Assembly (NCBI GenBank): GCA_007376385.1 | Contig: VMGC01000001.1 | Coordinates: forward strand, 32,001-96,000 | DNA: 64,000 nt | Source of the DNA: Parcubacteria group bacterium Gr01-1014_8 | GTDB lineage: Bacteria; Patescibacteriota; Minisyncoccia; Phycocordibacterales; UBA2100 | Reading direction: 5' to 3' | Part shown: in pieces, positions 39,944 through 63,986 of the stretch | Layout of the letters: each line of letters begins with the position of its first letter | How positions within the stretch are numbered: position 1 is the stretch's first letter | Position numbers and translations under genes: made by a program | The notes under the pieces: generated by a model | The model's database searches: none | Told to the model about the DNA's origin: nothing | What the model saw: only the letters and a program-made list of their open reading frames with translations

Positions 39944-40741
39944 TTACTTCAATTCCAGAGAAATCGGGCAGTGATCGGAGCCAAATATGTCAGGATGAAT
40001 TTCTGCTTTGTGGATTCTTGACGCAAGAGATTTTGAAACAAAAAAATAATCTATGCGCCAACCAACATTACGCGCACGCGCATTTCCGAAGTGGCTCCAC
40101 CACGTATAGAACCCTTTTCCTTTGTGCTCGAGCCTGAACGAGTCTATAAATCCGGCGTCGACCAACATTTGGATACCCTCGCGCTCCTCTTTGGTGAATC
40201 CGTGCTCGCCCTCGTTAGCCTTGGGATTGGCCAAATCATCCTCCGTGTGTGCTACGTTCAGGTCTCCCGTAAAAATGACAGGTTTTTTCTTCTCTAGCTG
40301 TTTTATATAGGACAGAAACGCAGGGTCCCAGTGCTTATGCCGCAACGCCAATCGGCTCAAATCCGGTTTCGCATTGGGCGTATACACGTTCACAAGAAAA
40401 AAATCCTTGAATTCCGCGGCCATAACGCGGCCCTCGGCGTTCGGATCCCCGTATCCGTCACCTGATAACTTGAACTTCTTAGCTATTTCCTCAGGAAGTC
40501 CGAGTAAAAGGCCCAGAGGCTTAACTTTCGTAAAAATGGCTGTGCCGGCGTACCCTTTCTTCCTTGTTGAAGAGTTCCAGTACTCCTCGTACTCTGGCAA
40601 GTCGATTACAGCCTGTCCCTTCTCTGCCTTAGTCTCTTGGAGGCAAATAATGTCTGGTTTCAGAGCTCGGACAAAGGGCACAAAAAGCTCCTTTCTATGG
40701 ACAGCTCGCAGTCCATTCACATTCCATGAAACCAGTTTCAT
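39944..40741 (-). CDS. xth: exodeoxyribonuclease III
   Basis: 'MKLVSWNVNGLRA', 'DIICLQETK' and 'SDHCPISLEL'. Length 265 aa. Confidence 0.95.
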   Translation of the reverse strand: MKLVSWNVNGLRAVHRKELFVPFVRALKPDIICLQETKAEKGQAVIDLPEYEEYWNSSTRKKGYAGTAIFTKVKPLGLLLGLPEEIAKKFKLSGDGYGDPNAEGRVMAAEFKDFFLVNVYTPNAKPDLSRLALRHKHWDPAFLSYIKQLEKKKPVIFTGDLNVAHTEDDLANPKANEGEHGFTKEEREGIQMLVDAGFIDSFRLEHKGKGFYTWWSHFGNARARNVGWRIDYFFVSKSLASRIHKAEIHPDIFGSDHCPISLELK

Positions 40742-40775
40742 GACAAAACACTAACACACCACATCACAGATTGAT

Positions 40776-41576
40776 TTATGCGCTTAAGGTGCTGTCTATG
40801 TAGCGGAACAATTCTTTCATTGTTTTTGCAACCTTTTCATCTTCGATCAGTACTGCGAGAGGATGTTCTTTCGCAAAAGACGCTATAAGGATCTTATTTT
40901 CGTAGATGGCAAGTTCTATATCGAAATCGAACCCGGGCGGCAAGACCTTAGTCAAGCGGAAATCTTTAGAATCGCGTGCCTTTATCCAATGAGGCTCATT
41001 CTTACTGGCTGTTGCAATGTCGAGAAATTCAACTCCGGCTTTTTTTCGGCGAGCGATATAGTATTCTATCCAATCCATATCGATGGATTTCTCACTCAAC
41101 ACTGTATCCGTCCCGGTAAAACCGTATATAACCTTTGATGAATTGTTACGAATCGTATCTTCATATGCCTGTTTCAGCCCTTCCACGCCGTCAAAGTATT
41201 GGATCGCGGGATAGGCTTTGCCACCTGTTTTTCTGACTTGTTCGATTACCGGAACAATGTCCCGCACCCGCTCGATATCAGACGAAAGTCTTTCTCTTGA
41301 TCGCTCAATATAGTCCACAAGGAGGTGCGGCTGGATGGATCGATAAGTTAGGATTCCTCCATCCTCAACTGAAGAAACAAGCCCACGTTTTGAAAGTGTT
41401 TTTAGTATTCCATACAGGGTAGTACGGTTCACTTTCGTATTCTTCGAGATAGTTGAAATTCTCTCTGCACGTCCACTCTCCAACAAGTACGTAAAGACCT
41501 GCCCTTCAGAAGCAGAAAGTCCCAGGTGTTCTAGAACTTCGTTTAGATTGTGTTGCATAAGCCTTGGAGCATGCAT
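40776..41576 (-). CDS. TrmB-family transcriptional regulator
   Basis: N-terminal TrmB HTH 'LNEVLEHLGLSASEGQVFTYLLESGRAERISTISKNTKVNRTTLYGILKTLSKRGLV' plus a TrmB C-terminal domain. The start is ambiguous, at M21 or M27 of the ORF. Confidence 0.75.
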   Translation of the reverse strand: MHAPRLMQHNLNEVLEHLGLSASEGQVFTYLLESGRAERISTISKNTKVNRTTLYGILKTLSKRGLVSSVEDGGILTYRSIQPHLLVDYIERSRERLSSDIERVRDIVPVIEQVRKTGGKAYPAIQYFDGVEGLKQAYEDTIRNNSSKVIYGFTGTDTVLSEKSIDMDWIEYYIARRKKAGVEFLDIATASKNEPHWIKARDSKDFRLTKVLPPGFDFDIELAIYENKILIASFAKEHPLAVLIEDEKVAKTMKELFRYIDSTLSA

Positions 41577-41615
41577 ACTGTTGTCGGAATTTAACAACAA
41601 AATTACCACAAAACA

Positions 41616-41643
41616 TTGACTCTTGTCAAGCGCCACGTAATAT
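41616..41643 (+). promoter_or_regulatory. sigma70-type promoter of the liv-type ABC operon, overlapped by a palindromic operator candidate
   Basis: TTGACT at 41616-41621, a 16-nt spacer, then TAATAT at 41638-41643. The palindrome TTGACtcttGTCAA at 41616-41629 covers the -35 element and the spacer. Confidence 0.5.
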
Positions 41644-41691
41644 TGCCTCGTTATTTTAATAATTTAGAGTTGTATAGCCCTGTCGAATTAT

Positions 41692-42819
41692 ATGGACAAT
41701 TCAGCTAAGTTCATCGGATGGGCCGCAGGAATCGCGGTCGTTGCGGCAGTAATTGTGTTTATGTATGTGGGTACCTCAACCCCTTCTGAGACTGGACCTA
41801 TAACCATCGGCTTTATTGCGCCACTTACTGGGGATGTCGCATCAATAGGCTCCGTCGCACGTACGGCAACGGAGCTTGCAGTAGAAGAGATCAACAGCGC
41901 CGGGGGCATTGACGGCCGACAGCTCAACGTTGTCTACGAGGATGGGCAGTGTTCGGCAACGCCTGCAAACAATGCGGCGACAAAACTCATTAATGCCGAC
42001 AGAGTAATTGCAATAATCGGTGGTGTATGTTCTTCTGAAACCGCTGCATTCGCGCCGACAGCGATGCAGAATAAAATTGTCGTCATTTCGGAATGTTCTT
42101 CTGCGCCGAATCTAAGCAAGACCGGGAAGTACTTCTTCAGAAATTACCCATCCGATGCTTATCAGGGAAAGTATGCGGCGGAGCATGCATATAACATGCT
42201 TGGTGCCCGAAACGCTGCATTGATTTTCCATCAAACTGACTGGGGAACCGGTATTAAAGATGTATTCAAGCAGCGCTTTACGGAGCTCGGAGGCAATATT
42301 GTTGTTGAAGATGGCTCGCCGCAGGAAGCGCGTGATTATCGGACTGCGCTTTCGAAAGTAAAAGTAGCAAATCCTGACTACATCTACGCGCCAACATACC
42401 CCGAAGGCGGAACCGTGCTTCTGAGACAGATAAAAGAAATGGGTATCAACTCGAAAATTCTCGCCGGAGATGCATGGTCTGATACGAGGTTGCAAAAAGA
42501 CGTTGCAAGTTTTGATCTCGACATTCTGTACGTCGAATCAAAAGGAAATGTCACGGATGAGTTCAAGTCAAAGCTTCTAGCGAAAACTGGCGGCGATCAA
42601 GTTCCACTGTGTGCGCCTCAAGTCTATGACGCAACGTACATTCTTGCGGAAGCACTAAAGAAGGCAGGTACTGACCCAGACAAACTCGCTGACGCAATGC
42701 GTGCAACAAAATACGACGGCGTATCGGGACACATTGAATTTGATGCGAATGGCGACATGACGGTCGCAGAATATATCGTTAAACGAATTGAAAACGGCAC
42801 TGCGGCACAAGTTCAATAG
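41692..42819 (+). CDS. ABC transporter substrate-binding protein, branched-chain amino acid/LivK-like (Peripla_BP_6)
   Basis: N-terminal TM or signal anchor, then 'ITIGFIAPLTGDVASIGSVARTATELAVEEINSAGGIDGRQLNVVYEDGQ', typical of LivJ/K-family SBPs. Confidence 0.85.
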   Translation: MDNSAKFIGWAAGIAVVAAVIVFMYVGTSTPSETGPITIGFIAPLTGDVASIGSVARTATELAVEEINSAGGIDGRQLNVVYEDGQCSATPANNAATKLINADRVIAIIGGVCSSETAAFAPTAMQNKIVVISECSSAPNLSKTGKYFFRNYPSDAYQGKYAAEHAYNMLGARNAALIFHQTDWGTGIKDVFKQRFTELGGNIVVEDGSPQEARDYRTALSKVKVANPDYIYAPTYPEGGTVLLRQIKEMGINSKILAGDAWSDTRLQKDVASFDLDILYVESKGNVTDEFKSKLLAKTGGDQVPLCAPQVYDATYILAEALKKAGTDPDKLADAMRATKYDGVSGHIEFDANGDMTVAEYIVKRIENGTAAQVQ

Positions 42820-42853
42820 CTGAAGCGGTACATTCGAAGGTATACTGCCGCTT

Positions 42854-43720
42854 ATGGAAATCGCGGTGCAAATCGCACTGAACGCAGTCATCGCTGGCGC
42901 TCTGTACTCGCTCGCGGCACTAGGTTTCAATCTTGTCTACAACACCGCACGATTCTTCGACCTCGGATACGGAGCAGTCGCGGCAACGGGGGCGTACGCT
43001 GTCTTCTATTTCTACAAAACTCTTCAATTCGATCTTCTTTCTTCGATAGCTCTCGGCATTCTCATAGCCGGCGCGCTTGGTTTTTTAATAGAAAAGGTCG
43101 TATATAGACAGCTTCGGGCACGTAAGGCATCTCAAACGGTTCTCCTCATCGCCTCCCTTGGTGTTTTGACTGTCGTGCAGGCAATAATTGCAATAATTTT
43201 CTCCAGCCAGTTCCAAACGTTGTCACGGAATATCGGAGCAAGTCGCATTTATAACGTATATGGGGGTGTCATGACAGAAACGCAAGTCATTATCTTGTGC
43301 TCGGGTCTCAGTATCATGACGGCACTAGGCATAATTCTGCGCTATACACTATTTGGCAAGGCAATAAAGGCGGTTGCAGACGACGAGGAGGTCGCGCAAA
43401 TAGTTGGCATCAACAGCGAGCGCCTTATCGGCATAGTTTTTTTCATCGGCTCCGCGATAGGCGGCATTGCGGGAATTGCAGTTGGCTTTGACACTGGGAT
43501 TCAGCCGACTATGGGAATGACATTACTACTTTCCGGTGTAGTCGCGGCGATAATTGGGGGAATGGGGAATGTATATGGTGGAGTTATCGGCGCGTTCTTA
43601 CTCGCAGCAATCGAAAATGCCGGCGTTTGGTACCTCTCCGGAGAATGGAAGGCCGCTATCGCATTTGCGATTCTTATTCTATTCCTCCTTTTCCGTCCGC
43701 AAGGACTCTTTCAAAAATAA
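42854..43720 (+). CDS. livH: branched-chain amino acid ABC transporter permease (LivH-like)
   Basis: 288 aa with eight TM segments and BPD_transp_2 signatures. Confidence 0.85.
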   Translation: MEIAVQIALNAVIAGALYSLAALGFNLVYNTARFFDLGYGAVAATGAYAVFYFYKTLQFDLLSSIALGILIAGALGFLIEKVVYRQLRARKASQTVLLIASLGVLTVVQAIIAIIFSSQFQTLSRNIGASRIYNVYGGVMTETQVIILCSGLSIMTALGIILRYTLFGKAIKAVADDEEVAQIVGINSERLIGIVFFIGSAIGGIAGIAVGFDTGIQPTMGMTLLLSGVVAAIIGGMGNVYGGVIGAFLLAAIENAGVWYLSGEWKAAIAFAILILFLLFRPQGLFQK

Positions 43721-43723
43721 TAT

Positions 43724-44590
43724 ATGGAATATCTTGTACATATAGCAGTGCTGATTTGTATATACGGCATTCTCGGACTCTCGTTAAATCTTGCTGTGGG
43801 GCAGGCGGGATTGCTTTCGGTTACTCACGCAGCATTTTACGGAATCGGAGCATACGTAGTTGCACTACTGCTGATAGCAGTTGGGCTCAATTTCTTTATC
43901 GCGGTACCGATTGCAATGATCCTCGCAGGGGTTGTTGCGCTCGCAGTCGGCGTCGTGTTCTCGAGACTCCGTGAGGTGTATTACGTATTCGGAACACTAG
44001 GGTTCAATATCATCGCATATAGCGTCTTTCTCAATTGGGATAGCGTGACACGTGGACCTCTCGGGATTCCGGGGATCCCGCGACCCGAGATTTTTGGTTT
44101 TCGATTCGGTGAGAATGAATTTTTTCTGATTCTTGCGACAATTTTTCTCGCAATTACATATGCGGTATGCCAATTTGTCACATCCTCGTCATTCGGCCGT
44201 GTGCTTCGCGCGATTCGTGAAGACGAAGAAGTAACATCCGTATTCGGATATGCAACGCACTATCATAAACTCGCTGTTTTTGTCATTTCAGGCATGCTTG
44301 CTGCATTCGCCGGAACACTTTTTGCGACGTACATAACATTCATTGACCCCTCGAGTTTTAATTTGAACGAATCGATATTTATTCTTGCCATCATAATCCT
44401 AGGTGGACTCGCATCACATCGCGGCGCGATTCTGGGAGCGTTTCTTCTCATTATCCTTCCCGAGGCACTTCGATTCGTGGGATTTCCCTCGGACGTCGCG
44501 GCACAGATGAGACAGGTAACCTACGGTTTAATTTTAATTTTACTTATGCTCTATCGTCCACAGGGAATTTGGGGCGAGTTCAGGATGTAG
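43724..44590 (+). CDS. livM: branched-chain amino acid ABC transporter permease (LivM-like)
   Basis: 288 aa, polytopic, a paralog of the preceding permease. Confidence 0.85.
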   Translation: MEYLVHIAVLICIYGILGLSLNLAVGQAGLLSVTHAAFYGIGAYVVALLLIAVGLNFFIAVPIAMILAGVVALAVGVVFSRLREVYYVFGTLGFNIIAYSVFLNWDSVTRGPLGIPGIPRPEIFGFRFGENEFFLILATIFLAITYAVCQFVTSSSFGRVLRAIREDEEVTSVFGYATHYHKLAVFVISGMLAAFAGTLFATYITFIDPSSFNLNESIFILAIIILGGLASHRGAILGAFLLIILPEALRFVGFPSDVAAQMRQVTYGLILILLMLYRPQGIWGEFRM

Positions 44591-45332
44591 TCGTCTCGAT
44601 TGCCGGCTTCGATATTTGCCACATCGCTTCGAACATGGCGCGGAAAGCGTTTGCTATATCTTCACTTTCAATCTTTACAGTGAAATATTCTTTTTTTGCT
44701 GAGGTAATCAGTGTCGTATTGCCAAATATGCCTATATCGGTAGCAAAAGGAGAGAATTCTTTTGGCATGAGTCGAACTTGCCGATACGGTCCACTAGCGC
44801 GTCGCGCATAAGCACGCGAAACCTCGCTGTCGTCAGCAATTTCGCGCGTGCGAAATGCGGGCGAAAGAGAAACATACTCGAACTTCTGAAGAGTGCGCGC
44901 AAACACTTCTTGTACCAAATCCATATTGCTCATGTAGAGTATTTCTCCCTTCACAACAAAGCTATCGTCATACGCTCGATCAAGCGCTTCTTTTCCTTCG
45001 AAAACTACCACACGCGGGCGACTATCTTTGTTCAACATCATCGCCTCAAATTGCGGAATCATGTTTTGTATCTCCTTAAGACGAATCTCCGCCTCAGCGA
45101 GAATTTTTCGTGGATGCTGGGGAGCGTAAAGCGTCTGACGTTTTTTCTCTACTCTTGAGACAAGCCCCTTCGATTCGAGCGAATGCAAAATCAAATAAGC
45201 AGTCGGTCGTTTAATTACAGCTTTTTTTGCAATCTTCAAAACAGAAGCCTCTCCGATCTCCAAAAGCGCTAAATAGACGGAAGACTCTTTTTCGTTGAGT
45301 CCGATGTGGCGAAGGGTCTCCCTTGATTCCAT
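44580..45332 (-). CDS. TrmB-family transcriptional regulator (second copy)
   Basis: 'LNEKESSVYLALLEIGEASVLKIAKKAVIKRPTAYLILHSLESKGLV' HTH plus a TrmB C-terminal domain. It is convergent with livM and overlaps it by 11 nt. Confidence 0.75.
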   Translation of the reverse strand: MESRETLRHIGLNEKESSVYLALLEIGEASVLKIAKKAVIKRPTAYLILHSLESKGLVSRVEKKRQTLYAPQHPRKILAEAEIRLKEIQNMIPQFEAMMLNKDSRPRVVVFEGKEALDRAYDDSFVVKGEILYMSNMDLVQEVFARTLQKFEYVSLSPAFRTREIADDSEVSRAYARRASGPYRQVRLMPKEFSPFATDIGIFGNTTLITSAKKEYFTVKIESEDIANAFRAMFEAMWQISKPAIETTTS

Positions 45333-45360
45333 GCACGTAGATTAGCCAAGTTATGTCCTA

Positions 45361-45379
45361 TTGTCAATATTTCTGACAA
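45361..45379. promoter_or_regulatory. palindromic operator candidate in the divergent trmB2 / SBP2 promoter region
   Basis: TTGTCA-atatttc-TGACAA is a perfect 6-bp inverted repeat. It shares the hexamer TTGTCA with the site at 41616-41629. Confidence 0.4.
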
Positions 45380-45515
45380 CACGACATAAAAGATGGTCCA
45401 AAAAGCTTATTAAAAAGGGCTTTTTTGGTCTAAAATCATTGACCCACAATATATAAAAAAGTCAAACTACTGGCCGTGCAGGGGGATTAGCCATAACCAC
45501 CCCCTTCCGAGCTAC

Positions 45516-46682
45516 ATGAAAAACGTACTTGTTTGGGGAATCGGTGGATTGGTAGTGATCAGTGGATTGGTGTTTTATGGAACGGGAATCAGTGGCGGCA
45601 ATCCTTTCACTGCTGCAGTAGGGGGACTTTTTACCAATAGCGATACGATCAGGGTCGGTGCAGCGCTTGGTCTCACCGGGGTGTGTGCCCAATGGGGAGA
45701 AGGGGAGCTGCAAGCCGTTCAGTTGGCGGTGGATGAAACAAATACTAACGGAGGCATCGAGGGGAGACAAATCGAGTTGTTCGTCGAGGATACCCAGTGC
45801 GACCCGAAGGGTGCCGTGAGCGCCATGAAGAAATTGACCGAGGTAAACAGTGTTGAGGCTATCATCGGCCTCACGTGGGGAGACAGCTTCCAAGCTGGAC
45901 ACTTCGTGAACCAAGAAAAGCAAATACTTGCTGTTGCGCCGTCTGCTGCGATGGAAGCGCTGCTTCTTAACAAAATACCGATCACGCACACATTCTCGAC
46001 ATGGTTCCCAGTGCAAACACAAATTGATACACTGCAGGCGTATATGCGAAAGACAGGAAGGACAAACATTGTCGTAGTACATGACCAAGACCCGTATGGG
46101 AAGATGCTTGCGACAGTCTTTGTGAGCAATGCGCAGAAAAATGAGCTCGTGATCATGAGCGAGGAAGAATTTCCTATTGGTTTCGACGATTTCAGGACCA
46201 CCATCATTAAACTCAAGAACACGAAGCCCGATGCGGTCTTCGGCGCGTTCCAATCACCTGATCTTAAAGCCAAATTCTTAAAGCAGTCGCATGAACTCGG
46301 TCTCAAAGTCCAATTGTTCAGTTCTGAAGACATTCAAGATGAAGGCATACTCAAGGAATTCGGCTCGGTAATGGAAGGGGTCATTTATACGTATCCGACT
46401 GCCTCAGGAAACTTCGAAGAGCTGTTTGAAAAACTCAAACAGAAACACGGAGCCGTGCCCGCGGGGGCGAGTGTTGCAAATGCATATGATGCAACGCACG
46501 TGGTAATCCATGCATTAACCGAACACTACAGAAATGGCACCTCTCTTAACGGCGCCGTCGAAGGAATGGCAATCCCCGGCACAGCAGTAAAAGAAATCAG
46601 GTTCAATGAAACGCATCAAATTACCGGAACCGTCTTCCAAGTTAAAACAGTTCGCAACGGCGAATTCGTGGTGATAGAGTAG
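45516..46682 (+). CDS. second ABC transporter substrate-binding protein (Peripla_BP_6 family)
   Basis: N-terminal anchor, then 'IRVGAALGLTGVCAQWGEGELQAVQLAVDETNTNGGIEGRQIELFVEDTQ'. It is a paralog of the 41692 SBP. Confidence 0.8.
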   Translation: MKNVLVWGIGGLVVISGLVFYGTGISGGNPFTAAVGGLFTNSDTIRVGAALGLTGVCAQWGEGELQAVQLAVDETNTNGGIEGRQIELFVEDTQCDPKGAVSAMKKLTEVNSVEAIIGLTWGDSFQAGHFVNQEKQILAVAPSAAMEALLLNKIPITHTFSTWFPVQTQIDTLQAYMRKTGRTNIVVVHDQDPYGKMLATVFVSNAQKNELVIMSEEEFPIGFDDFRTTIIKLKNTKPDAVFGAFQSPDLKAKFLKQSHELGLKVQLFSSEDIQDEGILKEFGSVMEGVIYTYPTASGNFEELFEKLKQKHGAVPAGASVANAYDATHVVIHALTEHYRNGTSLNGAVEGMAIPGTAVKEIRFNETHQITGTVFQVKTVRNGEFVVIE

Positions 46683-46686
46683 CTAG

Positions 46687-47421
46687 ATGGGGTTGTTGGA
46701 AACACGCAAACTCACAAAATCATTCGGTGGAGCTCAAGCGGTGGATCATGTTGACCTCTCGTTCGAAGCGGGAAAGATAACTGCGCTTATTGGCCCCAAC
46801 GGGTCGGGAAAAACTACGCTTATCCATACGATAACCGGCATGATGCCGATGGGTGGTGGCACGGTCGTTATCAGTGATTCAATCGAACTTTCAAAAATAG
46901 CTGCTCAGGACGTAGCATCCTACGGAATCACGCGAACATTCCAGAATTCACGGCTCATCCAGCAAATGAGCGTGCTCGATAATGTGCTGTTTGTTCTTAC
47001 TGAACGAAATTTTTTCGGTTCTTTATTTGAAAGACACGGAACATTTCATCTGGACGCCGCCGAGGATATATTGAAAAAGATCGGACTGTGGGAAAAACGT
47101 GACGAAAAAGCGGAAAATTTGTCGTACGGCCAGCGCAAGCTACTTGAAGTTGCGCGAGCCGTATTGATGAAGGCAAATGTATATTTTTTTGACGAGCCGT
47201 TCGCAGGATTATTCCCTGAAATGCGTAAAACTATTTCAGATATCATGCGCAAATTGAAAAATGCCGGCGCTGCAGTTGTACTTGTCGAACATGACATGGA
47301 ACTCGTGCGCGAACTCGCCGACCACTGTTACGTCCTCGATAGCGGCAAAGTTATTGCCGAGGGAACACCGGAACAGGTTCTCAAGCAAGCTAATGTCGTT
47401 GAGGCGTATTTGGGTAAATGA
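46687..47421 (+). CDS. livG: ABC transporter ATP-binding protein (LivG-like)
   Basis: Walker A 'GPNGSGKTT', signature 'LSYGQRKLLEVARA' and Walker B 'FFDEP'. Confidence 0.9.
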   Translation: MGLLETRKLTKSFGGAQAVDHVDLSFEAGKITALIGPNGSGKTTLIHTITGMMPMGGGTVVISDSIELSKIAAQDVASYGITRTFQNSRLIQQMSVLDNVLFVLTERNFFGSLFERHGTFHLDAAEDILKKIGLWEKRDEKAENLSYGQRKLLEVARAVLMKANVYFFDEPFAGLFPEMRKTISDIMRKLKNAGAAVVLVEHDMELVRELADHCYVLDSGKVIAEGTPEQVLKQANVVEAYLGK

Positions 47422-47422
47422 T

Positions 47423-48142
47423 ATGAAAGACACATTGCTTCAGCTCAAAGATGCATATGTGCAGTACGGCGGAGTAACTGCTCTCGCTGATGCGACTGTG
47501 CGCATAGATGATGGGGAAATTGCGGCACTGATGGGACCGAACGGGGCAGGAAAATCGACTGTTTTAAAGGCTTTATTCGGAATCGCACCGATGACACATG
47601 GAAAAGTTTTGTGGCACGAGCAAGAACTCAAACCTGTGCCGTATGAGATGGCAGCACGCGGAATTGCATATGTTCCACAGGGAAGACAAGTATTTAAAAA
47701 CCTCACTGTCTATGAAAATCTAGAGCTCGGCGGATATGCCCTGCCGAATAGAAAAGACACAAAGAAAAATATCGAGGCGGTATTGCATATTTTTCCTGCC
47801 ATTGAAGAAAAACTCAATACAAAAGCAGGATTACTCTCCGGAGGCCAGCAGCAAATGCTCACTATCGCGCGTGGGCTTGTATCTGACCCGAAAGTACTTC
47901 TGCTCGATGAGCCATCACTTGGACTTGCACCAAAAATTGTGAAGGACGTGTTCGAGAAAATCAAAGAAATAAACGCTATTCGGAAAATTGCGATTGTCGT
48001 CGTGGAGCACAGCGTGAAATCCGTCCTTTCCATCGCGCATCGTGCGTATATTCTTTCAAGAGGAAAGATATTCGCAGAAAAAAGCGCGCAAGAACTGATG
48101 ACAAGTGATACGCTTTCAAAAGCATTCCTAGGAACAAGCTAA
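47423..48142 (+). CDS. livF: ABC transporter ATP-binding protein (LivF-like)
   Basis: Start at MKDTLLQ, 1 nt after the livG stop. Walker A 'GPNGAGKST', signature '[14 protein letters not shown]' and Walker B 'LLLDEP'. Confidence 0.9.
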
Positions 48143-50358
48143 CGACGTCGTTTACCGTGGAAGGCCTTATGAACTTCTCTAAGGTGCTTATCAGTGACGT
48201 GCGTGTACACTTGCGTAGTTGCAATATTTGCGTGGCCCAAAAGTGCCTGAACGGAACGCAAGTCGGCACCATTCTCCAGCAAGTCTGTTGCGAAAGAGTT
48301 GTGAGAAATGAAACCATCGGTAATAAAGTTGTGCGTTGGTTCTACTGTAAAGTCGTAGACAATTGATGGTTCGCTTAGATTCTCAATACGTTTAACGCGT
48401 AACCAGCGAATCGAATCCAGAGAATGTACAAGTCGCAAATGTTCTACGCACAAGTGCTTTACGTTGTTTTCATCGCACGCTTTAATTAAGGACTGTAATA
48501 ACGTTGGCGTTGTGCATATGCGCGTATATCTTTTAAGATATCGAATACCATACTCCTCTCCCAATAGGTGCATAAAACCCTTCTTTTCCAACAAAACTGG
48601 GTACAGAGTCCGCACTATATTTTGTGTTGGCAATGCAATATCGAGGCGCATCCACTTTTTCTTGGACTGTAAATTTTGCTTAAATGTTGGAATTAGTTCC
48701 ACAAATCGATTCTGACTTGGGGGATATGTAACATACAACGTATATATCGTATGTTGAATCGTACGTCCCTGTGGTAATTTAACCATTCTTGTTCTTGGTA
48801 AAAGGATACTCTCAATCGAGAGTCTTAGTAACAACATTTGCACATCCTTTAAGAGTTCTTTACTTGCTGAAAACATTTTTATCGCGCCATTATTTCCTTC
48901 AGCATCGTAATATCCAGCCAAAAATGAACGAATATTTTCTTCTGATTCTTGAAAGAGTTGCGGAGGGACACGTCTGTATTTTGAACGCTGCGTTATACCA
49001 AATGATCGTACTTTTTTAAGAAAATCGACATTGTAAATATTGAGCGCAAAACCATGACCATTTGACAAAGCAACTATTGTTCCGTACCGACCAGTCACAT
49101 GATGCACAATCTCGTTGTACAAATCGATATGTCGCCTGTCTTTGTCGTTCAAGATTATTCCGCGCCTTGCCTCGCTCAAGGTCCCATCGCCGAGAATATA
49201 GCCGAGTAGGCGCCAGAAGTCGGTTGATTCGGTTTCTGCGTGCTTTTCAAGATGCATCTCAATACCGCGCACCCCGGCAACATAATCACCGATCTTCAGT
49301 TCCTGCACCTGAATAGCAGTAATTCCGTTTTCTGTAACTGTGAAAAAACTATGGTACGGAGTACATAGTATTTCCCGTCCATCCGCCCATAGTGAGATCA
49401 TATGGTCGGTTTTATGTGTTTCTTTGTGCGTAATCGCTGCACGGATAAAGCGATTATTGAACCAGTCGAAGCCAAGTACTTTTTTTGTGTCATTGGCGGT
49501 AAATAATTTTTCTGCTGTAGTCAGAGAAGGATTGCCCATGACTCTCGTTTCAGGATGAAGACAATGGCGAATGACGTGAGGAGTCACTTTGCGTGTGATG
49601 CCAGCCCTGATCGCGTACTGTTTCACTATCCGTTCAACAGAGCGGGGGGTGAGCGTCTGAAGTTTTTTGCCAGCTCGCCCATAGCTGACAAACAATGCGC
49701 CCTCCACATCACCGCGCTTCTCCAAATACTCTTTCACGGCTTTCTTTGCAGTAGGAGAGAGAAATACAACGCGGACTTTATCGCCCTTGCCGCGTATTGA
49801 AAATTCATCTCGGGAGAGATCGAGATCTCTATCGAGCGAACAGAGTTCGGAAACACGAAGACCAGTTGAAAAAAATAATTCAAGAATCGCACGGTCACGA
49901 AGTGCCGTCAGCGAATTACCGCTCGGACCTTTCATGAGCCGCTCAAGTTCCGCAGCCGTGATCAAGTCAAGATCCCGCCCACCGACTTTCGCAAGTTCAA
50001 TACGCTCGGGGGAGAGCGATTCAATGTTCTGTTTCCGCATGTATTTCAAAAACGAGCGCAGAGCGATGAGATAGTAATTCTGCGTCTTTTTTTTCATGTC
50101 ACCAGACACTCCCGGTTGACGATTCAACCACAATCGAAATTCGCGAACCAAAGGCTCAGTGAGTTTCGCGGGAGATGCCACCTTCGTATGAGTGAGGAAA
50201 CGAGTCAGATAGCGGTCGTAATTCTCGACCGTTTTTACGCTCCTTCCTTTTTCTATCTCCAAGTATTCGAGAAATTGCGTCTTCATCTCCTGCAAATCGG
50301 ATGCCATGTGTCGATTATACATCCCATGTCGCACAATATTTTTTTCAACCGCCGGCAT
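48139..50358 (-). CDS. xerC: XerC/XerD-family tyrosine recombinase interrupted by an in-frame intein
   Basis: N-terminal SAM-like domain ('[23 protein letters not shown]'). Catalytic domain with '...RVSELCSL', then 'TPHVIRH' | 422-aa insert | '[34 protein letters not shown]', which carries the nucleophile Tyr. Without the insert this is a normal XerC/D of about 317 aa. Confidence 0.85.
48298..49563 (-). mobile_element. intein with LAGLIDADG homing endonuclease, inserted between His and Ser of the recombinase R-H-S active-site motif
   Basis: Starts with Cys ('CLHPETRV', block A) and has 'CTPYH' (TxxH, block B). LAGLIDADG motifs '[11 protein letters not shown]' and '[11 protein letters not shown]'. 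C-terminal '[21 protein letters not shown]' is followed by extein Ser. Boundary codons were checked on the nucleotide sequence: aca = Cys at 49561-49563 and gtt = Asn at 48298-48300. Confidence 0.8.
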
Positions 50359-62993: not shown

Positions 62994-63986
62994 TTAGAAG
63001 GGATTCCTCGGACCGCCACGGATCTCAAAGTGAACATGAGCGCCTGTCGACCGGCCGGTCGAGCCGACGTACCCGATGACTTGTCCTTGCACTACATGCT
63101 GGCCAACCCCGATGATGAGACTCGAAGCATGAGCATAGAGCGTTTGCGTGCCGTTGTCATGCTTGATGACAACGTACTCACCATACCCGCCGTTCCAACC
63201 AGTACCTTTAGAAACGATGACATCGCCAGGAGCAGATGCAAGGATTGGGGTCCCAGCAGGAGCCGCAAGGTCAACACCGTTATACCCGTGTATGCCCTGA
63301 GAACGGATGCCACCAACGATAGGTCGAAGATAGTACCCTGCGTATTGTGCAGAACTGCCTCCCGACGCTGATAATTTTGGAGTGGCCACCCGAGGCGCCG
63401 ATGCCAATTCACCGTCCGGAATGATGATCTCATCGCCCAACGTCAGCGACGAAGCCGCAATGCCGTTGAAATTTGCAATTTCATCCGCATCGCCATGGAA
63501 TACTTTAGCAATAGAAGCAAGCGTATCTCCCTTCTTAACTTTGTATTTAATACCCGTTACCGGAAGTATGGTTAGGGTCTGGCCGACTCGAATGGTGCCG
63601 CTTGCAGAGATATCGTTGGCCCATTTAATGGTATTCATCGACACGTCAAACATCTCTGCAATCTCCGAAAGCGTGTTGCCTTCCTGCACAACATATATGC
63701 TGATGGATTGATTCTTCGTCTTTACAATGTCCGCTATGGTGCCCGATGGACCTTCATCCGGAAGAAGCGCCGAATCATCGACAACGGTTACGTCACCACC
63801 GCCTTTAGATGGATTAGGGTCAATGTTCATTGCCGCTTTGGGAAGCGGCAACGTTTGTAGGTTCGGGATATTTTGTTCGAGGGCTTCGGCTTTCTTCTCT
63901 TGTGTCATGCTCTCTGTCATCGAGATAAGAAAGCTCCCAACTTTGCCTGCTCCCTCGGATAAGATGCCCAACATAGACGCATGCAC
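62994..63986 (-). CDS. LysM-domain M23-family peptidoglycan endopeptidase
   Basis: Two LysM repeats ('YVVQEGNTLSEIAEMFDVSMNTIKWAN' and 'YKVKKGDTLASIAKVFHGDADEIANFN') plus an M23 core ('HGYNGVDLAAPAGTPILA...GYGEYVVIKHDNGTQTLYAHASS...GYVGSTGRSTGAHVHFEIR'). The start lies 14 nt from the window edge, so the N-terminus may be incomplete. Confidence 0.85.
   Translation of the reverse strand: MHASMLGILSEGAGKVGSFLISMTESMTQEKKAEALEQNIPNLQTLPLPKAAMNIDPNPSKGGGDVTVVDDSALLPDEGPSGTIADIVKTKNQSISIYVVQEGNTLSEIAEMFDVSMNTIKWANDISASGTIRVGQTLTILPVTGIKYKVKKGDTLASIAKVFHGDADEIANFNGIAASSLTLGDEIIIPDGELASAPRVATPKLSASGGSSAQYAGYYLRPIVGGIRSQGIHGYNGVDLAAPAGTPILASAPGDVIVSKGTGWNGGYGEYVVIKHDNGTQTLYAHASSLIIGVGQHVVQGQVIGYVGSTGRSTGAHVHFEIRGGPRNPF

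Follow-up and report, generated by a model that had tools for sequence, protein, structure and literature searches.

A Liv-type importer locus with two regulator genes

The DNA analysed here, hereafter the window, is a 64,000-nt stretch of an uncultured Parcubacteria genome (candidate phyla radiation (CPR)/Patescibacteria). It contains a locus which, judging from its predicted proteins, is an amino-acid ATP-binding cassette (ABC) importer of the HAAT/Liv type, and which also carries two genes for TrmB-family regulators, trmB1 and trmB2 (Table 1). According to Pfam, the HAAT/Liv set (TC 3.A.1.4) is complete, with a Peripla_BP_6 substrate-binding protein (SBP), two BPD_transp_2 permeases, and two ABC ATPases, one of which has a BCA_ABC_TP_C tail. 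The NCBIfam top matches of the transporter proteins are LivJ, LivH, LivM, LivG, and LivF or their Urt paralogs, all of them under the equivalog cut-offs. The start of the livF-type gene was placed from the translation and from the NCBIfam LivF/UrtE alignment, which begins at residue 55–60. An initial annotation, made from the DNA sequence alone, had described a Liv-type transporter with two SBPs and two TrmB-family regulators; Pfam bears out this description, and Pfam, the list of open reading frames (ORFs), and motif positions place every feature it listed where it had put it.

Table 1. Genes, predicted promoters, and candidate operators of the locus (positions in the window)
Feature	Positions	Strand	Description	Basis
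trmB1	40776–41576	−	266-aa regulator; PF01978 winged helix-turn-helix (wHTH), long helix, phospholipase D (PLD)-like C-terminal domain	Pfam, AF2, Foldseek
SBP1	41692–42819	+	Peripla_BP_6 substrate-binding protein, LivJ-like	Pfam, 204.5 bits
livH-type permease	42854–43720	+	BPD_transp_2, PF02653
livM-type permease	43724–44590	+	BPD_transp_2, PF02653
trmB2	44580–45332	−	250-aa regulator, architecture as TrmB1	Pfam PF01978
SBP2	45516–46682	+	divergent Peripla_BP_6 binding protein, 27% identical to SBP1
livG-type ATPase	46687–47421	+	PF00005 and BCA_ABC_TP_C
livF-type ATPase	about 47423–48142	+	start put at Met55 of a long ORF
O_T	41581–41600		TrmB1-type palindrome TTGTYG-N8-CRACAA, TTGTCGGAATTTAACAACAA; between the −10 of P_trmB1 and the trmB1 ATG
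P_trmB1 (predicted)	41600–41629	−	−35 TTGACA 41629–41624, 18-nt spacer, −10 TAATTT 41605–41600
Site 1	41616–41629		TTGACTCTTGTCAA, also written TTGACtcttGTCAA; most simply two overlapping divergent −35 hexamers
P_SBP1 (predicted)	41616–41643	+	−35 TTGACT 41616–41621, 16-nt spacer, −10 TAATAT 41638–41643	consensus scan
O_S	41680–41699		candidate second TrmB1-type site, CTGTCGAATTATATGGACAA; over the SBP1 start codon, about +31 to +50 of P_SBP1
P_trmB2 (predicted)	45339–45367	−	−35 TTGACA 45367–45362, 17-nt spacer, −10 TAATCT 45344–45339
Site 2 / O1	45351–45389		core TGTCA-N7-TGACA 45362–45378 inside an inverted repeat with 16-nt arms
P_SBP2 (tentative)	45427–45468	+	−35 TTGACC 45439–45444, 18-nt spacer, −10 CAAACT 45463–45468

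As the divergent trmB2–SBP2 cassette is located between livM and livG, livHM would be transcribed with SBP1 and livGF with SBP2. Transport would then need both units to be on, or read-through from P_SBP1 running antisense across trmB2, so that the two binding proteins are unlikely to be under fully independent control. The livM and trmB2 genes are convergent, with an 11-nt overlap at 44580–44590 in the ORF list, and livHM transcription would enter trmB2 antisense unless terminated. A terminator scan from livM/trmB2 to SBP2 gave no convincing candidate, an Rfam search of 40500–48500 at E≤1 returned zero riboswitch or RNA-element matches in leaders, and base composition around the trmB2–SBP2 cassette showed no anomaly.

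Both SBPs are nearest to solved amino-acid binders (LivJ/LivK, 3TD9, and 4GNR), the nearest PDB relatives of SBP1 being 3TD9, 4GNR, and LivJ. We take the LivJ contacts to the alpha-amino and alpha-carboxylate groups of the ligand to be S79, T102, Y150, Y202, and E226. At these presumed positions, pairwise HMMER alignments place S, S, W, Y, and D in SBP1, so that all contacts of the Escherichia coli protein are kept or conservatively replaced, and G, A, Y, Q, and E in SBP2, where three of five are lost and only Y150 and E226 are kept. SBP2 probably has a different ligand.

Two regulators of TrmBL2 architecture

The PF01978 TrmB helix-turn-helix (HTH) was detected at 44 bits in TrmB1 and 61.9 bits in TrmB2 (Pfam cut-off 25.6). 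The two proteins, which are the only PF01978/TrmB-type copies in the window, are 26% identical over their full length. AlphaFold (AF2) models built from family alignments reach predicted local distance difference test (pLDDT) values of 90.8 for TrmB1 and 88.5 for TrmB2, and the best full-length structural match is archaeal TrmBL2 (5BPD, Foldseek E 3e-14). PDB sequence searches with the regulators matched the HTH region only, the C-terminal domain being placed by fold search.

Several features separate these proteins from the TrmB/TrmBL1 group. The PF11495 effector domain had zero matches in TrmB1 and TrmB2 at E≤0.01. With 250–266 aa, as against 338–341 aa in TrmB/TrmBL1, they are about 80 residues shorter than TrmB, and the models hold the PLD-like subdomain only, the sugar-binding subdomain being absent. 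Scores against the NCBIfam TrmB/TrmBL1 equivalogs are 18–34 bits, for cut-offs of 600–650. The TrmBL2 equivalog (NF041141) matches TrmB2 at 23.4 bits, for a cut-off of 530 and in the HTH region only, and does not match TrmB1. As modelled, TrmB1 and TrmB2 belong to the TrmB family and have the architecture of TrmBL2; they are not TrmBs of the sugar-sensing kind. They share with TrmBL2 of the Thermococcales (TK0471/PF0496, PDB 5BOX/5BPD) a length of ~260 aa (about 264 aa in TrmBL2), a PF01978 wHTH with a recognition-helix tyrosine, a long helix, and a PLD-like domain, together with the lack of a sugar-binding subdomain, but are only about 17% identical to it in sequence.

TrmB2 Y46 aligns with the recognition-helix tyrosine of TrmBL2 and TrmB (Y50), the adjacent aspartate not being kept, and Y50 of both archaeal proteins is important in DNA recognition (PMC4158304). 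Y46 is invariant in the TrmB2 family, as is Y55 in the TrmB1 family. HKD nuclease or phospholipase activity of the PLD-like domain was excluded because no histidine is conserved in this domain and the catalytic HxK(x)4D motif is absent.

The trmB1–SBP1 intergenic region

Within the window, neither site 1 (TTGAC-N4-GTCAA with at most one mismatch, 4 versus 2.3 expected) nor site 2 (TGTCA-N7-TGACA with at most one mismatch, 4 versus 1.6 expected) is significantly more frequent than chance, and promoter-like sites in the region number 10, versus 11.1 in shuffles. As these counts are uninformative, significance had to come from relatives. The trmB1 gene is divergent from a Peripla_BP_6 gene in its 12 closest relatives, and we aligned 12 orthologous trmB1–SBP1 regions.

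The promoter proposed for SBP1 in the initial annotation (TTGACT-16-TAATAT) has its −35 and −10 boxes conserved in all 12 orthologs: on the SBP strand, a −35 (TTGACT, TTGACA, TTGCAA, or TGGACA) is followed at 16–17 nt by a −10 (TAATAT, TAAGAT, TAGAAT, and other variants). The initial annotation had also proposed that the palindrome overlapping this −35, our site 1, is an operator. The palindrome is indeed present and overlaps the −35, but the orthologs point to two promoter elements instead. The second arm of site 1, read on the trmB strand, is TTGACA, TTGACT, TTGATT, or TTGTAT, with a −10-like hexamer 16–18 nt away, again in 12/12 orthologs (in the window, GGTAAT at 41607–41602, with a 16-nt spacer, is an alternative −10 for P_trmB1). 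The two arms degenerate independently (TTGATT, TTGTAT, TTGCAA, TGGACA) and keep their −35 character, usually the TTG. Because degenerate arms stay −35-like, each with its own −10, site 1 is most simply read as a back-to-back overlap of the −35 hexamers of two divergent promoters. It illustrates that a palindrome covering a −35 box may arise as a by-product of such a promoter pair and need not be an operator.

Better operator candidates, which the initial annotation had missed, are two palindromes of another type, O_T and O_S. O_T was found in all 12 orthologous regions. In the 1.39 Mb of relatives' loci that we scanned, each of the 15 matches to its pattern is located directly upstream of a TrmB1-type gene, and the window contains a single match, TTGTCG-N8-CAACAA, which is O_T itself. 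O_S scores 11.9 bits against a position weight matrix derived from O_T, a score reached by 0.27% of 140-nt background windows. Equivalents of O_S score 11.5–17.1 bits in 6 of the 12 orthologs (background fraction ≤0.003) and ~4.5–4.9 bits in two more. They are positioned at the SBP −10 or up to ~36 nt downstream of it, some over the ATG and some upstream; as their position relative to the ATG varies, coding constraint does not explain O_S. The palindromes adjoining the start codons of other paralog groups are different ones, as would be expected if every regulator recognised the site beside it.

A different conserved element, CTGTGGAtTnATTTnGTCA, is located ~10 nt downstream of the SBP-promoter −10 in the intergenic regions of another cassette group (L001_3973, L010, and L011) and also in L001_6001, which carries it together with a TrmB1-type O_T.

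The trmB2–SBP2 intergenic region

The second palindrome of the initial annotation, TTGTCAatatttcTGACAA (TTGTCA-N7-TGACAA) at 45361–45379, is the core of an inverted repeat (45351–45366 and 45374–45389, 88% complementary) that we call site 2 or O1. One arm of its core (45362–45366, TGTCA on the plus strand and TGACA on the trmB2 strand) falls within the −35 of P_trmB2. Among 48 distinct upstream regions of TrmB2-family genes (47–70% identity), TGTCA-N7-TGACA is perfect in 47, and the distance from the end of O1 to the ATG is 28–34 nt in 40. Of the 80 perfect sites in 1.39 Mb, 70 are located at promoters of TrmB-family genes. The palindromes of the initial annotation are therefore both conserved upstream of relatives (site 1 in 12/12 regions, site 2 in 47/48). 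One other perfect match at 63155–63171 of the window lies inside a 330-aa ORF (62994–63986, minus strand) with GC-rich flanks, and is probably due to chance.

The initial annotation had assigned site 2 to SBP2. As site 2 lies over the trmB2 −35 and is kept whatever the neighbouring gene, its position and conservation indicate that it is an element of trmB2's own promoter, not of the SBP2 promoter. The only well-supported role predicted for it is autoregulation by TrmB2. In the family, the −10 (TATACT, TAAAAT; TAATCT in the window) lies 17 nt past the −35, and the ATG follows after 6–9 nt (6 in the window). With an ATG only a few nucleotides past the −10, the trmB2 mRNA is probably leaderless. 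About 40 trmB2 homologues (L081–L163) have a −10 that ends 6–9 nt before the ATG and no visible Shine-Dalgarno sequence.

TrmB2 may also control SBP2-livGF, the promoter of which is ~70 bp away: a dimer at O1 would cooperate with another at a weaker site over the −35, 65–66 bp off, shutting both promoters. We consider this role possible but tentative. In its favour, nearly every family member has TGTCAA (the reverse complement of TTGACA) at a fixed distance of 65–66 nt from O1, followed by a −10-like box, and the trmB2–SBP2 synteny is kept in nine loci. In 19 of 47 regions, including the SBP-linked L082, L089, and L099, the TGTCAA element lies within a further palindrome whose score exceeds the 99th percentile of background. 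Two more distant TrmB2-family genes (L142 4649–4742 and L149 2078–2169) have two perfect TGTCA-N7-TGACA sites 75–77 bp apart upstream of them, as would fit a pair of operators in some lineages. However, TGTCAA is also what a plain −35 consensus gives on the opposite strand, the genes neighbouring trmB2 homologues are heterogeneous, and the window is not among the 19 regions. A full second TrmB2 site at its SBP2 promoter was rejected, with a score of −16.6 bits; only a weak palindrome, GGTC-N10-GACC, covers the P_SBP2 −35 there (45427–45444), leaving a half-site indistinguishable from a −35 hexamer.

Two further elements were noted in this region. Between the divergent promoters lies an AT-rich near-palindrome (45398–45428, CCAAAAAGC...GCTTTTTTGG), the position of which is kept across the TrmB2 family with the consensus aAAAat...c.ttttTt. 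The putative 5' leader of SBP2 contains a G/C hairpin, AGGGGG-N14-CCCCCT (45480–45505), which ends 11 nt before the ATG and has no Rfam match.

Regulator–SBP cassettes in related genomes

A TrmB1 family profile searched against 185,579 species genomes gave matches on CPR-type contigs only. The four closest TrmB1 orthologs (58–74% identity) are all divergent from an SBP gene, which is followed by livHMGF in three of them, and none has a second cassette; the simple unit is thus trmB1 divergent from SBP1-livHMGF. Elsewhere, divergent pairs of a TrmB-like and a Peripla_BP_6 gene are repeated beside a single livHM(G) set (L001–L005, L007, L010, and L011), giving 19 such pairs when the two of the window are included. 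For example, a Patescibacteria metagenome-assembled genome (L002 1–12771, JAZKAU010000002.1) has five Peripla_BP_6 and five TrmB-like genes around one livHM pair, and this 12.8-kb array is the most expanded that we observed. More distant TrmB1-like genes (L006, L008, L009, and L012–L014) have no SBP neighbours, and the pairing is therefore limited to a subclade.

For TrmB2, a metagenome scan yielded 80 loci, only nine of which have an SBP2-type neighbour. Two loci (L082 and L083) repeat the whole layout of the window, SBP1-livH-livM-(trmB2)-SBP2-livG-livF. Judging from these gene orders, regulator plus SBP cassettes are modular and restricted to certain lineages.

Proposed regulation and alternative readings

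The explanation that we favour, with moderate confidence, is a Liv importer under two autoregulated TrmB-family proteins, of which TrmB1 would act as a repressor through O_T and O_S and TrmB2 would regulate its own gene through O1. In this model, a second cassette (trmB2 divergent from SBP2) would have come to lie between livM and livG of an ancestral trmB1–SBP1-livHMGF unit. Two overlapping divergent sigma-70-type promoters would share the 14-bp core of site 1. From the promoter calls, transcription is predicted to start near 41650 (+) for SBP1, near 41593 (−) for trmB1, at the A of the ATG (45332, −) for trmB2, and near 45475 (+) for SBP2, and the half-sites of the candidate operators are spaced, centre to centre, by 14 bp for TrmB1 and 12 bp for TrmB2. 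TrmB1 would bind TTGTYG-N8-CRACAA at both O_T and O_S: at O_T, just downstream of its own −10 and over its start region, it would repress trmB1, and at O_S, downstream of the P_SBP1 start, it would block SBP1-livHM, possibly in cooperation with O_T. TrmB1 is thus probably a local autoregulated repressor of SBP1-livHM; its release would come from a ligand, plausibly an amino acid that the PLD-like domain binds. TrmB2, from a widespread Parcubacteria family, would autoregulate through O1, over the −35 of its predicted leaderless promoter.

Several observations weigh against this explanation. O_S is missing or weak in 4–6 of the 12 orthologs, and O_T and O_S are 63 to 99 bp apart with no helical phasing, so that looping would not be required. 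At about −60 of P_SBP1, O_T is placed where activators typically bind. The SBP1-type gene of L082 and L083 has no TrmB1 partner, and TrmB2 relatives at 53–68% identity are mostly beside unrelated, non-SBP genes. Finally, the assignment of palindromes to regulators comes from position and co-variation only, and start sites and leaderless status from consensus spacing only.

The position of O_T leads to a second, rather unlikely reading, in which a dual-function TrmB1 bound there represses itself and activates SBP1-livHM, either through contact with RNA polymerase or because P_trmB1, which overlaps P_SBP1, would no longer compete, O_S being secondary or irrelevant. The geometry of O_T and the promoter fits this reading, O_T is universal when O_S is not, and members of the TrmB family repress or activate according to site position (PMC4158304). 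Activation by archaeal TrmB, however, works with a different transcription machinery, and at least half of the orthologs show significant conservation of O_S, at the start site or downstream of it, a placement that suits repression.

The model of the initial annotation, in which TTGACtcttGTCAA and TTGTCA-N7-TGACAA are related operators and each TrmB represses the adjacent SBP, appears improbable. Both palindromes exist and are conserved, and site 1 overlaps the P_SBP1 −35, as had been proposed. The two sites are not of one kind, however, as their half-sites come in opposite order (TTGAC/GTCAA in site 1, TGTCA/TGACA in site 2) and with other spacing. In addition, the arms of site 1 behave as independent −35 hexamers, and its half-sites are unlike those of the conserved TrmB1-type palindrome that accompanies each trmB1 gene. 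The predicted SBP2 start site is ~105 nt downstream of site 2, which is equally conserved without an SBP neighbour.

It is very improbable that TrmB1 and TrmB2 are chromatin proteins coating DNA globally with low specificity, the palindromes being promoter features or sites of other factors: TrmBL2 is the best structural match, neither protein has a recognisable effector subdomain, and a passage in PMC3031468 mentions conserved TrmBL2 homologues in 'some bacterial species', but near-invariant, paralog-specific palindromes lie next to each regulator gene, and the two copies in 64 kb are both at this locus.

Comparison with known systems and implications

TrmBL2 is an abundant archaeal chromatin protein and a global repressor, found on coding and intergenic DNA (PMC4158304). 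By contrast, the proteins of the window are bacterial, lie beside specific putative targets, and are flanked by near-invariant palindromes. An architecture experimentally known only from an archaeal chromatin protein thus probably serves bacteria as a specific regulator of amino-acid uptake.

TrmB and TrmBL1 (Tgr) of Pyrococcus and Thermococcus share with TrmB1 and TrmB2 the family of the DNA-binding domain and a regulator gene that adjoins the transporter, and their palindromic operators at promoters of ABC-transporter operons can be likened to our candidate operators. The operator sequences differ: that of TrmB at malE is TACT-N3-AGTA, and the mdxE promoter has a separate motif, TGM (PMC4158304). 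The proteins of the window also lack PF11495 and the ~70-aa sugar-binding part, and they are associated with bacterial sigma-70 promoters and with a HAAT, not a sugar, transporter. The archaeal malE–TrmB system is nevertheless the closest in logic, being a local ABC-transporter regulator on a promoter palindrome, although it differs in effector subdomain, transporter class, and transcription machinery.

As in the LivJ/LivK-LivHMGF system of E. coli, two Peripla_BP_6 binding proteins would serve one LivHMGF translocator, but here the second SBP gene splits the operon and leaves permease and ATPase genes in separate transcription units. The liv genes of E. coli are controlled by Lrp, not by adjacent TrmB-type regulators. 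Divergent regulator/target pairs such as TetR-tetA, and many of the LysR and GntR types, have overlapping promoters, an operator on the regulator's own promoter providing autoregulation. Compared with TetR-type pairs, the locus described here involves another protein family, a palindrome made of −35 hexamers, and a proposed second operator over the start codon of the target.

CPR bacteria have tiny genomes with few regulators and rely on imported nutrients. To our knowledge, almost nothing is known about their transcriptional control, and our literature search returned no paper linking TrmB proteins with CPR lineages. The locus provides testable predictions for these bacteria, namely two regulator families, candidate operators defined at the base level, a promoter layout, and a probably leaderless trmB2. 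More speculatively, and with doubts that we regard as substantial, a large family of sequence-specific, autoregulated local regulators, with a PLD-like sensor and plug-in SBP cassettes, may have arisen in CPR/Patescibacteria from the TrmBL2 scaffold. If so, some of these regulators would have leaderless mRNAs, the cassettes would give a single LivHMGF new, separately controlled substrate specificities (up to five per locus), and the TrmB2-family regulator of the invariant TGTCA-N7-TGACA would be one of the few conserved Parcubacteria transcription factors.

Neighbouring genes

An exonuclease III gene (xth, 39944–40741) adjoins trmB1 in the window. An xth gene is also located next to the trmB1 ortholog of L168, with a short 189-aa PF01978 protein encoded between them (L168 2175–2744). 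Directly downstream of livF, a minus-strand gene (48139–50358) encodes a 739-aa tyrosine recombinase of the XerC/XerD type, which is split by an intein with a LAGLIDADG homing-endonuclease domain (Pfam Phage_integrase, Intein_splicing, and LAGLIDADG_3).

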